A DNA stretch of 29,177 nucleotides from Candidatus Methanomethylicaceae archaeon (GTDB lineage Archaea > Thermoproteota > Methanomethylicia > Methanomethylicales > Methanomethylicaceae): assembly GCA_049970435.1 (NCBI GenBank), contig JBMFMY010000001.1, positions 1 through 29,177 of the forward strand. The letters are read 5' to 3'. Both the position numbers and the translations under genes were made by a program. Position 1 is the stretch's first letter; the number at the start of each line of letters is the position of its first letter. The notes beneath the pieces were generated by a model. The model made no database searches. It was not told where the DNA came from and saw only the letters and a program-made list of their open reading frames with translations. Below are positions 5,049 to 24,569 of the stretch, piece after piece.

Positions 5049-6062
5049 TCAACTCAACAATACTTTCTGTTGAGAGAGCACTGACTTTAGAAGTGTGATT
5101 ATTTCGGAAACTGTGGATCCCTCGAGTACGGTTATCCCATAGAGAGGTGCGAGCTTTCTTGCACTCTCAGTCAACCTCGGCATGCAGACGAGTATGGTCT
5201 TTGCCGAGCTTGTATCCAGCACCTTCACGTAGGTGTTCAAAATAACCGATTCATTAATCGCCTCTTTAGAAGTTATCACATCGACAACGACGGCTCTGCC
5301 TGAGTTATCTATGCCGACGACGTCAAACGGGTGCATTGTTCCAGACTTACCAACTAGAGTCCCAGGGGAGTTCACGGTTAAACCTGCGGCTTTAAGTTCG
5401 TTCATTATCGGTCTTATGACAAGATGTTGCCGCAAGAACTCCTCCATAGCGGCTTTGTTCATTATAACACGAGGTACAGATGATATAACAAGCCCGTGAA
5501 CAGTAACCTCCTTTTTGCAGGTACTACACAAGTATGTGATCTTCGGCAGATCTGCTTGCCTGTAACAGATCAGACACCTGTACCACACCCCTATCGTCCT
5601 ATAATCTCTCCCTTCAACATTGAGTTTCGAGCCGCAACTTGGGCAAACCAAGGTGCCGGAAGGATCTTTAAACTTTGAAACGGGCCCTATGACGCCATCC
5701 CTAATATGCTCAAGCAGGAGCTCCTTGTAAAGCTGCGTTGAGTTGCAAAAAGGGCAATGGAAGTACACGCGAATGTGTTCGGAGCCGCAGTATGGGCACT
5801 TAAGGACTTGGTCATGGTATTCCGTCTTGCCAAGGCCGAGGGAGATCAATTTATTAATAATCTCGACCGTTTCCTGTGGGGTCGATTTGCAGCTCTTTAT
5901 TATATCTGGGTAAGTGTAGCCATACTGGAGATCGAACTCTGGCAGCAGGACATCCTTAGCCTCCCTCACCAAGTATTCAAACAGGCATACAAGCCGACTA
6001 TCGCTTACTATAGCATTGTAGTAAGACTGTGATGCTGGAGGTGAGGCCAATTTTTCCACCAA
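5049..6062 (-). CDS. TackOD1-type multi-zinc-ribbon protein with C-terminal Mrr/REase-like domain
   Basis: YGYTYP; CPYCGS, CPFCNS, LLEH, CPSCG, GRDYRTIG, CLIC, CSTC. C-terminal GKSGTMHPFDVV...AKTILVCMPRLTESARKLA resembles an Mrr_cat-like fold. Confidence 0.75.
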   Translation of the reverse strand: MVEKLASPPASQSYYNAIVSDSRLVCLFEYLVREAKDVLLPEFDLQYGYTYPDIIKSCKSTPQETVEIINKLISLGLGKTEYHDQVLKCPYCGSEHIRVYFHCPFCNSTQLYKELLLEHIRDGVIGPVSKFKDPSGTLVCPSCGSKLNVEGRDYRTIGVWYRCLICYRQADLPKITYLCSTCKKEVTVHGLVISSVPRVIMNKAAMEEFLRQHLVIRPIMNELKAAGLTVNSPGTLVGKSGTMHPFDVVGIDNSGRAVVVDVITSKEAINESVILNTYVKVLDTSSAKTILVCMPRLTESARKLAPLYGITVLEGSTVSEIITLLKSVLSQQKVLLS

Positions 6063-16062: not shown

Positions 16063-17643
16063 TCAGGGGGCAACTCTCGAGTATACGCCCACGAAGACAG
16101 GACCCCTCACATCGATCCTTCCACCCCTGCTTGTGATGTACCTCATCCCCACGTCGGTGAGTCTGAGGTTCACATCGCTGAGAAGCTTCGCCATCCTCAC
16201 CCTGAGCTCCACGTTCCCCTCCCTCTCTATCCTCGCAGCAGCCGCCTTGGCTATGGCGTCCAAGTACCTTATCCCTGTCCTTACGCCTTTTTCCCTTGCA
16301 TCCTCCACCAACTTCACCCTCTCGAGCCCCCTCTCTGGCACTCCGAGGATGTTTGCGTTGTAGACCACGATCTCATTGAAGGCTGCCGGTCCAACGAGCT
16401 TTACATTGGGATCCGGCTCGAATACTTTCACGACCACCCTTCTCCCTCCCACGTTCCCCTCGTAAGCCAGGAACTCACATGGACTGCTGGCATCTCTGTT
16501 CTCCTCGAGCGCCCTGACTATGGCAGCCTCGACAGCCCTCCCCTCCTCTGTCGCAGGCTCTTCTATGAACTTTATCTGCCTAGCAAGGGCCGCATCAGAG
16601 AGTATCCACTCGCCATAGAACTGCGGATAAGAGAGCTCCCTAACATCGCTGTATCCGTACAGCAATGCTGCCACTCTCTCGACCCCTATCCCAATATTGA
16701 GGACAGGGAACTCTATGCCATACTTAGCAAGCGCCACGGGGCTGTAGAGCCCGAAGTCGACGACCTCGAACCACTCAGATCCTCCCATTCTGGCGAAGAC
16801 CTCGTACTCGGTCCCGGGTGCATAGTACTTCGCCGTTATCTTCTTTCTCTCAAACCTCACATCCTTGAATCCCAGCCTCTTCAAGATCTCCTCAGAGACC
16901 TTCTTACCGTCCTCTAACGAGACCTCCTCATCCATTATAACAGAAGAGGCTGCATGGTGGAACTTCAGGTGCTTTGCGTCCTCCTGCTGCTCCCTCCTAG
17001 CCCTGAGCCCAACGGAGAAGAGCATCACCGGTCTTTCCAGCTTGTGCTGAACAGCAGCACAAGTCAAAAACCAGGCACTGGTCATGTGCGACCTGAGAAG
17101 TTGCTTGGTGGGGATAGGCTCAAGTTTGCTGAACTGAGGGAAAGCCTCATTGAGGATCTTCAGTGCCACTGTGTCCTCCACCTTCAGCGCCTCTGAGATC
17201 TTCTCCACCAGGTCGTCTCCATCGATCCTCCCCTTCTTGTAGTCGTGCAGGGTCGCCTTGAGCCTCTCTAAGCTGCCCTCGTCCACTGGTCCTCCAGCCC
17301 GCCTTATCGCCTCTACCTCCTTCGACCCTATGCCCACATCTGGTCTCGGCAAAGTCGCGAGGTAGTAGCACCTGTCCAGTATAGCCGGAGCCTCGCTCCC
17401 ATACTGTTTGTAAATGTCTGCCTCCTCAACTATCATAGGGTTTACCACCTCGTCAAATCCGAGCTCGAGATAAGCCTCCCTCAGCCTGTTTACGGTCTCC
17501 ATCAGCACGTGCGGGCTACCCTTCTTCCCTGCCCTGAACGCCCCTCTGCCGCCCACAAGGCTTCCAGTCTCGATCCAGCACCTCTCAAAGTCACTCTCAG
17601 CCTTCTCTAAGATCTCCTTTATGTTGAGCCTCATACCCTTCAC
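16063..17643 (-). CDS. sepS: O-phosphoseryl-tRNA(Cys) synthetase
   Basis: LREAYLELGFDEVVNP, QYGSEAPAILDRCYYLATLPRPDVG, LRSHMTSAWF, RREQQED, SKYY-like AKYYAPGTEYEV, GIGVERVA. Confidence 0.95.
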   Translation of the reverse strand: MKGMRLNIKEILEKAESDFERCWIETGSLVGGRGAFRAGKKGSPHVLMETVNRLREAYLELGFDEVVNPMIVEEADIYKQYGSEAPAILDRCYYLATLPRPDVGIGSKEVEAIRRAGGPVDEGSLERLKATLHDYKKGRIDGDDLVEKISEALKVEDTVALKILNEAFPQFSKLEPIPTKQLLRSHMTSAWFLTCAAVQHKLERPVMLFSVGLRARREQQEDAKHLKFHHAASSVIMDEEVSLEDGKKVSEEILKRLGFKDVRFERKKITAKYYAPGTEYEVFARMGGSEWFEVVDFGLYSPVALAKYGIEFPVLNIGIGVERVAALLYGYSDVRELSYPQFYGEWILSDAALARQIKFIEEPATEEGRAVEAAIVRALEENRDASSPCEFLAYEGNVGGRRVVVKVFEPDPNVKLVGPAAFNEIVVYNANILGVPERGLERVKLVEDAREKGVRTGIRYLDAIAKAAAARIEREGNVELRVRMAKLLSDVNLRLTDVGMRYITSRGGRIDVRGPVFVGVYSRVAP

Positions 17644-22655: not shown

Positions 22656-23570
22656 TTAGAAGTGTATCCTGCCGACAATTACCCTGTTCCTGACAACATC
22701 CGTCATGAACTCCACTCCTCTGAGCTTAGGGAGCTTTAGTAACAGATCCCGCTCAGTTAAGATCCCTACAGGGGCTCCGGAAGAGACAACGATCAAAGAC
22801 CCAACATTATTTGCATTCATTATTCTGACAGCATCGCTGAGATCCGCATCTGGACTAACTGTCTTAGGGTTCAGGGTTGCGATCTTAGAGACATTCGTGT
22901 TGAGAAGATACTCGCAGAGCCCTCGCTTTATGGCGTCTTCCACATAATCGCTTGCCAAAAATCTCATGATGTCCTTGACGGTCAAAATCCCCCACAACTG
23001 ACCATCGCTCATTATAGGGACCCTTCTAATGTCCCTCCCTATCATCAATCTTGAGATGTCCAGTAGCGTGGCTTTAGTGTCGAGTGTTATGAGTGGCTTT
23101 GACATCACCTCAAAAACCTTCACAAACATCTGGTTGCTCTCAAACAATTTGAAGAGGTGCCTCTCAGATAGTGAGCCCCAAATCCTGGAATTCTCATCTA
23201 TCAATGGTAGCATGCCTATATCTTTCTTAGCCATTAGAGACATAAGTTCGGGGAGGGTGTCTGTGGTTCGAGCAACTATCGGCTTCTTATTGACTATAGG
23301 CTCTATAGGCGAGTGGAGCGCCTTATGCAGGTCTCCTCCATGAAGGTCCATGAGGATATTGAACTTCTCTCCCCCTCCCAAATAATTGAGAATGTCCTTG
23401 GCGGAGACCAGTCCATCTACCCTCTGCCCATCATTGGATACGATTGCATGTCTAACACTCTTTTTGTGCATCATCCTTATGGCATCAATGACACTCGTGC
23501 TCGAAGGAAATACTACTGCAGGTGGGTGTCTGGCTATTGACGTTACTGAAAACGACGTCATTCTAATCAC
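22656..23570 (-). CDS. CBS-domain protein (two CBS pairs)
   Basis: SVRHAIV..GLVSAKDIL, DIRRVPIMSDGQLWGILTVKDI, VGSLIVV..PVGILTERDLL. Confidence 0.9.
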   Translation of the reverse strand: MIRMTSFSVTSIARHPPAVVFPSSTSVIDAIRMMHKKSVRHAIVSNDGQRVDGLVSAKDILNYLGGGEKFNILMDLHGGDLHKALHSPIEPIVNKKPIVARTTDTLPELMSLMAKKDIGMLPLIDENSRIWGSLSERHLFKLFESNQMFVKVFEVMSKPLITLDTKATLLDISRLMIGRDIRRVPIMSDGQLWGILTVKDIMRFLASDYVEDAIKRGLCEYLLNTNVSKIATLNPKTVSPDADLSDAVRIMNANNVGSLIVVSSGAPVGILTERDLLLKLPKLRGVEFMTDVVRNRVIVGRIHF

Positions 23571-23627: not shown

Positions 23628-24569
23628 GTGAAAATGTTTCTACTACTTTATGACATAGAGGGCAAAAGGGACCCTCGCGGGATCAGGATAAGGCTCATCC
23701 GCGCCTTAAGAAGCGTTAACGCTTTCCAGTTGCAAAGGTCTTCTTGGATCGTGGAATCATTTGACGATCGCCTCATCAAAATAATTGAAGAGCTGAGGTG
23801 TGCTGGTGGCTCGGTCAAGATCATGGAGTGGCTGCCCCGAAACTTGGCTGACACCCTCGGTGGAAGGTTATCCAAAAAAATTGTGATCGCACCACTTTCA
23901 TCAGAACCTGTACTGGAGGGATGGCTCGAGAGGATAAGATATGCTCTGGAATTCGCTGGCTTCAAAGTCTCGATCATACCGGTCGGAGAAAGTGCTATGA
24001 AGGCTCTTTACAGAGAGGTCAAAAACAGAGTTATCAAGCCTGAAAAGCCCCTGAGTCGTATTCTTGATGAGATATCAATCATGGATATAGACGGGCTAGT
24101 GTTGTTGAACTCGGGCAGGAGCATGCAAAGCGGGATTATGTACGTTGCTCAGATCATCTCCAACACAAAATTGCTAAAGAACATGCCATCACTTCCTCTG
24201 ATTCAGATAGAGAGGTATGGCAGACCCGACGGTACTATAATAGTGTGGAATGAATCTTTTGAAGTATTGTTAGAGGCAATTAAAAAAGCAACATCCTTGG
24301 GTGTGCTGCGCCCGAGTCTGGAGATCAGGAAAGTAAGCAAAGAGGGCAACAGGGAGATCAGGCAGATTCAATATGCCGAATATGGAGACAGGATCATACT
24401 GAATGGCAAACAAGTTGGCATCTGTCTATCCAACAGCGTTTATCTGATAGCCGAGAATGGCAGGCTCGTAGATATAATGGGTGGTAAGATCTTCAAAAGA
24501 GCCGCGAGAAGAGTTGTATTTGACTCCTTGGCAAACGCCATAGTCAAGACTCTGCCCGCAAAGGCTTAG
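23628..24569 (+). CDS. fusion of an N-terminal Cas2/PaaX-like ferredoxin-fold domain and a DUF2117-like domain
   Basis: N-term LLLYDI...RIRLIRALR...FQLQRSSW. C-term EKPLS, LVLLNSGRS, PLIQIERYG.PDG.IIVWN, GDRIILNG..VG, LIAENGRLVDIMGGKI, as recalled for DUF2117. Confidence 0.65.
   Translation: MKMFLLLYDIEGKRDPRGIRIRLIRALRSVNAFQLQRSSWIVESFDDRLIKIIEELRCAGGSVKIMEWLPRNLADTLGGRLSKKIVIAPLSSEPVLEGWLERIRYALEFAGFKVSIIPVGESAMKALYREVKNRVIKPEKPLSRILDEISIMDIDGLVLLNSGRSMQSGIMYVAQIISNTKLLKNMPSLPLIQIERYGRPDGTIIVWNESFEVLLEAIKKATSLGVLRPSLEIRKVSKEGNREIRQIQYAEYGDRIILNGKQVGICLSNSVYLIAENGRLVDIMGGKIFKRAARRVVFDSLANAIVKTLPAKA

Follow-up and report, generated by a model that had tools for sequence, protein, structure and literature searches.

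The protein family DUF2117 is also known as m19, arCOG03231 and MMP0143. It is one of 38 methanogenesis markers, and its 'function cannot be predicted' (Adam et al. 2022, PMC9635834 supplement). Gao and Gupta 2007 (PMC1852104) likewise count MMP0143 (COG4069) among proteins specific to methanogens. Cas2 is a protein of CRISPR (clustered regularly interspaced short palindromic repeats) systems, and its fold is already known outside them, in PaaX, ChrB and VapD; Pfam describes PaaX_M as a 'central Cas2-like domain'. A gene in which a Cas2-like domain is fused to a truncated DUF2117 is described here. It comes from a Candidatus Methanomethylicaceae archaeon (assembly GCA_049970435.1, contig JBMFMY010000001.1, positions 1 to 29,177), and this whole stretch of 29,177 nucleotides is called the window below.

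We lean towards reading the product as a dimeric, non-CRISPR accessory protein of the metabolism based on methyl-coenzyme M reductase (MCR), and as a paralog of m19 (MMP0143 family). Neither a Cas2-like/DUF2117 fusion nor the truncated paralog was found described in a full-text search of the literature, and DUF2117 is the only part that Pfam names. A preliminary description, made from the DNA letters alone, had not recognised this architecture, and the fusion is indeed not catalogued with a known role. Its reading of the architecture holds, but it missed that DUF2117 is the published marker m19 and that the fusion tracks MCR-encoding archaea and MCR-related neighbourhoods.

The Cas2-like domain and the DUF2117 core

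The gene was listed as an open reading frame (ORF) of 313 amino acids (aa) counted from a GTG codon. Its true start is most likely the ATG two codons later, because the M of MFLLLYDI, or a residue close to it, comes first in all 27 aligned homologues, and the protein's record in the database, 311 aa long, begins with the same residues. Shine-Dalgarno support for this ATG was considered and dropped, since GGTGA sits just 2 nt before it.

An N-terminal domain of the Cas2/PaaX-type ferredoxin fold, with an aspartate at the end of strand 1, had been proposed earlier; the AlphaFold model, Foldseek and hhalign agree on it. The fold, modelled over residues 3-70, is beta-alpha-beta-beta-alpha-beta in the models of the whole protein (predicted local distance difference test, pLDDT, 84.8) and of the domain alone (pLDDT 87.7). 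Strands span residues 3-9, 33-36, 39-42 and 62-68, and helices span residues 16-29 and 47-58. When the separate domain is compared with the PDB by Foldseek, Cas2 takes most of the top places (2ivy, 3exc, 4qr0, 1zpw, 4es1, 8d3l), with a probability of 1.0 and template-modelling (TM) scores of 0.5-0.6 (0.54-0.60 for the top matches). VapD appears lower in the list. An ACT-domain reading was also tried: the whole model matched formyl-tetrahydrofolate deformylases (ACT plus Rossmann), but the domain-only search was led by Cas2, and that reading was rejected.

Sequence profiles point the same way. A comparison profile was built from 28 genuine Cas2 proteins encoded by genomes of the same phylum, and hhalign aligned the N-domain with it at a probability of 86-93% (E 4e-7 to 5e-6), including the YDI and Q-x-S motifs. 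Among the domain's more distant relatives, Pfam matches below threshold were obtained to CRISPR_Cas2, PaaX_M and ChrB_N; one such relative, P0057, reaches 20.5 bits for ChrB_N and 17.9 bits for PaaX_M, each under the cut-off. A shape search of the ESM Atlas led to ChrB_N, PaaX_M and Cas2 clusters. In the target itself, Pfam Cas2 (PF09827) gives no match for residues 1-75 or 1-135 at E<=10. The sole Pfam match in residues 1-135 is to ChrB_N at chance level (E 0.08-0.16, 12-13 bits against a cut-off of 23), and Pfam finds neither of the partner domains wHTH/PaaX_C and ChrB_C. Sequence searches of the PDB with the whole protein and with the N-domain profile returned chance matches only, with E of at least 0.17. 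The domain is placed in the Cas2/PaaX_M/ChrB_N superfamily but outside Cas2 proper, because the Pfam Cas2 model misses it and VIA-align does not single out Cas2.

The N-domain is the best-conserved part of the protein. Over 28 aligned sequences, mean column identity is 67% in the N-domain and 60% in the whole protein, and 51 columns are invariant. The invariant N-domain residues include Y8, D9, I10, R20, R22, R25, Q34, S38 and W40, which belong to the motifs that the preliminary description had quoted; the others are D15, P16, G18, E55, R57, G60, G61, K64, E67, W68 and P70. In wider relatives the D9 position is Asp in nearly all, with Glu in one full-length relative and Tyr in one fragment.

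Two copies of the full protein were also modelled together in three runs, using a homologue alignment built by the authors. The homodimer reached an interface score (ipSAE) of 0.57 (median; range 0.54-0.66), against 0.00 for the best control. This mark is reached by 20 of 30 proteins solved as one-chain pairs and by 1 of 23 solved as single chains, a calibration that would hold only roughly here because the authors' own alignment was used. Contacts agree between the runs to 94% or more, and the pLDDT of the partner does not fall below 81. The predicted interface consists of residues 4-9, 35-39, 45-58 and 61-84, plus 151-153. It thus lies nearly all on the N-domain, where it takes in the Cas2-like sheet and the linker C-terminal to it, and D9 is part of it. 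The prediction supports, short of proof, the binding of two copies.

The remainder of the protein is DUF2117 without its HGPE-type motif and its C-terminal part, as first described and as Pfam and the alignment bear out. The Pfam profile of DUF2117 (PF09890; 325 positions) matches residues 136-308 with its positions 51-217, at 98.8 bits where the cut-off is 25 (E 4.1e-28). When the target is aligned with canonical members, residues 84-135 prove to be a diverged N-terminal part of the same family. NCBIfam gave no match for the target, so it is in none of NCBI's named methan_mark families.

In a motif table of 42 DUF2117 proteins, HGPE is replaced by L-S-S-E-P and GGTMGR by P-V-G-E-S-A in the target and its family; both motifs are kept in Methanobacterium-type members and in full-length fusions. 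The C-terminal GDDTT...DxDxD domain (roughly 140-150 residues; profile about 218-325) is absent. The target stops 5 residues past the conserved VKT, whereas canonical members extend 128-175 residues beyond it, and no separate gene for this domain was found in two single-contig genomes of the family. Two loops are retained, N-x-G-R-S-x-x-S-G and I-Q-I-E-R-x-G-x-x-D-G. 'Degenerate DUF2117' is a fair description of the core as judged from its sequence, because motifs have been replaced and the C-terminal domain is gone.

Among solved structures, the flavodoxin-like domain is best matched by the N-domain of a CbiG homologue (3eeq_B; Z 10.5, root-mean-square deviation 2.6 A over 110 residues). It tops both a Foldseek-led and an exhaustive search, in the latter about 2 Z units over the next matches. 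After these come many B12-binding and flavodoxin domains, with Z of about 7. The fold common to the 3eeq N-domain and the target shows no common function.

A likeness to Mmp7 was pursued as well, and no claim is made for it. Foldseek matched chain H of the MCR activation complex structure 8s7v (the chain is probably Mmp7 by its length) at a probability of 0.99 and TM 0.25, and the Atlas gave a weak match to a 'marker 7' protein (TM 0.39, with a poor Atlas model). Both remained unconfirmed, and 8s7v chain H was outside the 50 best VIA-align rows.

Distribution and relatives of the fusion

Full-length homologues of the target form about 35 clusters at 45-74% identity, from Candidatus Methanomethyliaceae genomes and metagenomes. 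Next in line come DUF2117 proteins of Methanobacterium (375-389 aa), whose match is limited to the query's C-terminal half. Within the family, the fusion gene is found in 15 of 16 sampled genomes and 8 genera, with one match per genome and intact frames. The gene is real and under constraint.

The wider distribution was examined in 151 evenly sampled genomes of the phylum, plus 14 named control genomes. DUF2117 occurs in 17 of the 151: in 14 of 15 genomes of family f1, in the window's own genome and in 2 of 3 genomes of f5:g12. McrA occurs in 16, all of them DUF2117-positive, and in none of the 134 DUF2117-negative genomes. Among the controls, DUF2117 and McrA were found only in the two methanogens. 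Of the 16 McrA-positive genomes, 14 carry one N-domain each, and G072 has a partial copy; wherever its gene was assembled whole, the N-domain sits on a truncated DUF2117. The fusion family is confined to MCR-encoding archaea as far as sampled.

The partial copy in G072 lies where a contig ends; this assembly has 0.9 Mb and a completeness rating of 93%. In G032 the profile does not detect the N-domain, and the truncated DUF2117 match there (G032:C18:25134-25664) carries an in-frame TAG, which may reflect a pseudogene or an assembly fault.

In most genomes of the family a canonical DUF2117 gene accompanies the fusion. In four, which are 93-98% complete, the fusion is present without a detectable canonical copy. 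In the window's genome (G000) the canonical gene is split, with profile positions 3-211 at one contig's end and 272-323 at another's start.

The motifs of the two paralogs can be complementary. In several Methanomethyliaceae in the motif table, the canonical copy keeps the His of HGPE, GTMGR in part and the C-terminal domain, and the fusion copy keeps NxGRSxxSG and IQIERxGxxDG; in G002 neither paralog keeps these two loops. The complementary motifs prompted the idea of an obligate heteromer of the two paralogs. Both the four genomes without a canonical copy and G002 argue against it.

The N-domain is rare in general. Its profile was scored against 1.84 billion representative proteins of all lengths and found only 17. 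All of these are DUF2117 fusions except for fragments, 2-3 small stand-alone proteins (69-75 aa, with weak Cas2 matches) and two weak repeat matches. Full-length fusions of 445-472 aa contain the entire DUF2117 profile, and truncated fusions resembling the target have 282-294 aa. A second search brought up full-length fusions of 458-486 aa in about a dozen clusters. The truncated fusions group together (SH-aLRT 94) in a tree built from the shared core, where they sit on a long branch of 1.88 changes per column. A single clade for all fusions is not rejected by the approximately unbiased (AU) test (p 0.53).

Weak matches to the N-domain profile (E 3e-6 to 1e-3) were also seen in G057, G049 and G113, three genomes of f11:g36, in ORFs of 178-210 aa that belong to a different protein family. 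The example from G057 (G057:C1:672486-672680; L066 1675-2211, -) is a 178-aa protein with a distant Cas2/ChrB_N-like N-terminus and a charged helical tail. A cluster of archaeal proteins labelled 'ChrB N-terminal domain' in the Atlas is similar to it.

Gene neighbourhoods

The features of the locus and the contexts of its relatives are collected in Table 1. The target is surrounded by housekeeping and transport genes, as judged from Pfam searches of the main ORFs. The divergent CBS gene, correctly noted in the preliminary description, is adjacent to and divergent from the target's counterpart in all 12 of the other Methanomethyliaceae loci that were compared (target identity 48-71%). The membrane-protein gene stays behind it in 10 of the 12. 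This membrane protein had been labelled a CPBP protease, a label without Pfam backing: at E<=10 only a spurious Wzz match appears, and motifs of the CPBP type (EExxxR, FxxxH and HxxxN-like) are visible in the translation.

That the locus has no CRISPR context was well seen. There is no CRISPR array in the window, Pfam searches of its main ORFs named no cas family, and no cas genes or arrays were seen in the examined loci of relatives. A genome-wide search for Cas2 gave a single match, a real Cas2 gene on contig C55.

Table 1. Features of the locus in the window, and gene contexts of related DUF2117 genes
Feature	Position	Strand	Evidence or context
ORF as listed	23628..24569	+	313 aa from GTG (ORF list and translation)
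Cas2-like/DUF2117 fusion gene	23634..24569	+	311 aa from ATG 23634, the most likely start; mechanical ORF start is GTG 23628
N-terminal Cas2-superfamily ferredoxin-like domain	23634..23843	+	Residues 3-72; AlphaFold (AF2), Foldseek, hhalign; predicted homodimer interface
Flavodoxin-like alpha/beta domain of DUF2117	23868..24314	+	Residues 81-229; AF2 model, structure match, motif table
Beta-rich C-terminal domain of DUF2117 core	24333..24557	+	Residues 236-310, ending in conserved VKT; AF2, Pfam, alignment
Divergent protein with four CBS domains	22656..23570	-	Pfam CBS, E 4.4e-48
Polytopic membrane protein, 338 aa	21634..22650	-	Downstream of CBS gene; ORF; no real Pfam family
O-phosphoseryl-tRNA synthetase (SepRS)	16063-17643	-	Also encoded in the window
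TackOD1-domain zinc-ribbon protein	5049-6062	-	Also encoded in the window
Canonical DUF2117 of the window's genome (G000)	C14:13821-14429 and C224:2-151 (loci L044 9804-10433, L045 2-244)		Cut by assembly
Full-length fusion, two genomes	L042 6307-9398 and L043 6307-9401		Directly downstream of 531-aa double-ABC (A2/AtwA-like) gene
Fusion	L007		Upstream mcrD, mcrC, TiaS-like, radical-SAM; downstream BtuF/C/D-type transporter and canonical DUF2117
Fusion	L008		mcrC, A2-like gene, transporter, canonical DUF2117 (adjacent), DUF2124
Fusion	L048		DUF2099, mcrC-like, mcrD, MCR_C (321 aa), DUF2113
Truncated fusion	L006		Peripla_BP_2, CbiA-type, Oxidored_nitro, Mur_ligase genes
Fusion (287 aa) and canonical copy, second phylum lineage	G002		Flank mcrC-mcrA-mcrG-mcrB
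Canonical DUF2117	Methanobacterium		First gene of marker operon
Three further contexts			CCG/FAD-binding pair or other genes; no MCR gene in view

Several relatives of the target are found beside genes of MCR and of methanogenesis markers. At L042 and L043, one of which is on a 3.05-Mb contig, the fusion and the A2-like gene share a strand and are about 100 bp apart, as genes of a single operon would be, and an AIR-synthase-related gene adjoins the fusion. Opposite lies a series of DUF8179, DUF2102, DUF2112, BcrAD_BadFG, DUF2113, radical-SAM, MCR_C (306 aa) and DUF2099 genes; DUF2102 is MMP0337 (PMC9635834 supplement). The gene set at L006, as read from its Pfam families, looks like the make-up expected of F430 synthesis genes. 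The G002 fusion is 24% identical overall to the target and has the same N-domain.

The purified MCR activation complex contains McrC, Mmp7, Mmp17, Mmp3, A2 and DUF2098, and DUF2117 was not co-purified with it (PMC12176620). The activation machinery is linked to DUF2117 by gene neighbourhoods only.

Two other kinds of neighbour recur. A Peripla_BP_2 (BtuF/FhuD-type) gene stands immediately beside the fusion in four contexts (L006, L007, L008/L009 and L046), usually accompanied by FecCD and an ABC ATPase. At L010/L011, L047 and L048, two paired genes are found downstream of the full-length fusion, one with a CCG domain (HdrD/GlcF-like) and one with FAD_binding_4 (GlcD-like); the pair follows the fusion directly in two contexts and comes after two HGD-D genes in L047.

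Possible functions and comparison with known systems

In the favoured reading, the target is a paralog of m19; it carries an N-domain of the Cas2/PaaX_M/ChrB_N superfamily and has shed HGPE, GGTMGR and the C-terminal GDDTT/DxDxD domain. Its Cas2-like domain would hold two DUF2117 cores together as a symmetric module for dimerisation or docking, the structural part that the fold plays in Cas2 dimers, and would have no role in CRISPR. The protein would be an accessory, probably non-catalytic factor in the maturation or activation of MCR or in the handling of its tetrapyrrole cofactors. In Methanomethyliaceae it would be co-regulated with the CBS-domain sensor protein. We infer the dimerising role from the model and the link to MCR or to cofactor handling from association only; a lack of catalysis is presumed. 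The recurrent BtuF-type neighbour and the fold, which resembles the CbiG N-domain and B12-binding domains, point weakly to a tetrapyrrole. A more specific version is possible but doubtful: the fusions would be a dimeric component or regulator of MCR maturation or activation, or of F430/corrinoid delivery, with the Methanomethyliaceae form as a sub-functionalised m19 paralog.

Several observations weigh against this reading. No MCR, marker or F430 gene was found by Pfam in the target's neighbourhood within the 29-kb window, and the link to MCR therefore rests on the phyletic pattern and on relatives. The canonical copy in the same genome has neighbours that are not MCR-related either (glycosyltransferase, SSF symporter, Macro, HtrA-like, RNA polymerase B). 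The sampled genomes are kin, and within the phylum the pattern comes down to two lineages (f1 and f5:g12), so the joint occurrence of McrA and DUF2117 amounts to few independent events. In VIA-align, Cas2 structures score Z 7.3-7.9 and other ferredoxin-like domains (EF-G domain V, 5ueb) score 7.1-8.2; as Cas2 does not rise above other folds of this kind, its assignment depends on the Foldseek ranking, hhalign and the motifs. Besides its rough calibration, the dimer score may have been passed through likeness to, or the model's memory of, solved Cas2 dimers, since such dimers exist. The retained NxGRSxxSG and IQIERxGxxDG loops leave 'non-catalytic' not established, to judge from these motifs. 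Finally, D9 and the Arg-rich helix 1, which is outside the predicted interface, are conserved, and this is equally compatible with the binding of metal or nucleic acid.

This last point leads to the proposal of a nuclease or nucleic-acid-binding regulator, which the preliminary description had made and which finds no support beyond the fold. The N-domain would be a working module of that kind, like those of Cas2 or VapD, acting as an RNase, a DNase or a (post-)transcriptional regulator, maybe of methane metabolism genes. We consider it unlikely. D9 is invariant in the 28 Methanomethyliaceae sequences and kept in nearly all wider relatives, the conserved arginines of helix 1 (R20, R22, R25, R28) lie outside the predicted dimer interface, and among its structural neighbours are VapD and Cas2 entries that were deposited as RNases or DNases (3exc, 4es1, 3ui3). 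D9 itself, however, sits within that interface, and its conservation may therefore be structural; moreover, it gives way to Glu or Tyr in two relatives. Pfam searches of the window found no DNA-binding domain, toxin-antitoxin partner or cas gene nearby, and Pfam describes PaaX_M and ChrB_N as belonging to regulators, not nucleases.

The conserved CBS arrangement can be taken to mean that in Methanomethyliaceae the fusion has left MCR work and become part of a lineage-specific sensing or regulatory module with the CBS and membrane proteins, for instance one that senses an adenosyl ligand and couples this to a process at the membrane. The constancy of the two neighbouring genes, the window's lack of MCR-related genes and the four nearly complete genomes that keep the fusion without a detectable canonical DUF2117 all agree with this. 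Yet the arrangement is found in one family alone, and shared ancestry may therefore explain it. In G002 the same architecture adjoins BtuF/BtuC-type genes and the mcr operon instead, and within the sample, the gene is found only in McrA genomes, except for the partial copy in G072. Such a module seems rather improbable, a shade more so than a nucleic-acid-binding role. A decaying DUF2117 duplicate without a function of its own would fit the loss of HGPE, GGTMGR and the entire C-terminal domain and the long branch, but it is hard to reconcile with intact, single-copy frames in nearly all family genomes across 8 genera, with the column identities and invariant columns given above, and with the fact that the fusion is kept more consistently than the canonical paralog. 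Decay is very improbable.

The finding matters for m19, a marker whose function the literature regards as not predictable. Four new handles are offered: a distinct paralog that is widely conserved and has a recognisable Cas2-type domain, the dimer interface predicted for it, the motifs that were kept or lost, and recurrent neighbourhoods with A2, mcrC/mcrD, marker, F430-synthesis-like and BtuF-type transporter genes. With PaaX and ChrB, the protein also belongs to the cases in which the Cas2 fold has been put to use outside CRISPR. Current understanding is unchanged unless experiments establish the link to MCR or its cofactors.

Compared with Cas2 (PF09827), the target has the same fold, the YDI and Q-x-S positions and the Asp that ends strand 1; its homodimer, predicted to be symmetric, may be a further likeness. 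It differs in lacking the C-terminal strand 5, in falling under the Pfam threshold and in being joined to an enzyme-like core that is unrelated. Neither an array nor cas1 or another cas gene is nearby, and the real Cas2 of the genome is elsewhere. The PaaX central domain (PF20803) and the ChrB N-terminal domain (PF20229) are likewise Cas2 folds outside CRISPR that form modules of larger proteins. Their likeness to the target is weak in both sequence and shape, and the target falls under their curated cut-offs and lacks the winged helix-turn-helix (wHTH), PaaX_C and ChrB_C domains.

The CbiG homologue of S. solfataricus (PDB 3eeq) matches in fold at 12% identity, but the target has neither the middle nor the C-terminal domain of CbiG. 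With canonical m19/DUF2117 the target shares a homologous core (residues 84-310, flavodoxin-like plus beta-rich, with the VKT end), the NxG[KR][ST]xx[ST]G and IQIERxGxxDG motifs and the confinement to MCR-encoding genomes. In contrast to the canonical protein, with which it coexists as a paralog in most family genomes, it has a Cas2-like domain of about 70 residues added N-terminally and is without HGPE, GGTMGR and the C-terminal domain. In the full-length fusions of metagenomic archaea (445-486 aa; for example P0055 and P0081), an N-domain 31-45% identical to that of the target is joined to DUF2117. These differ from the target in keeping all canonical motifs and the C-terminal domain, and in standing directly beside A2-like, mcrC/mcrD and marker genes.

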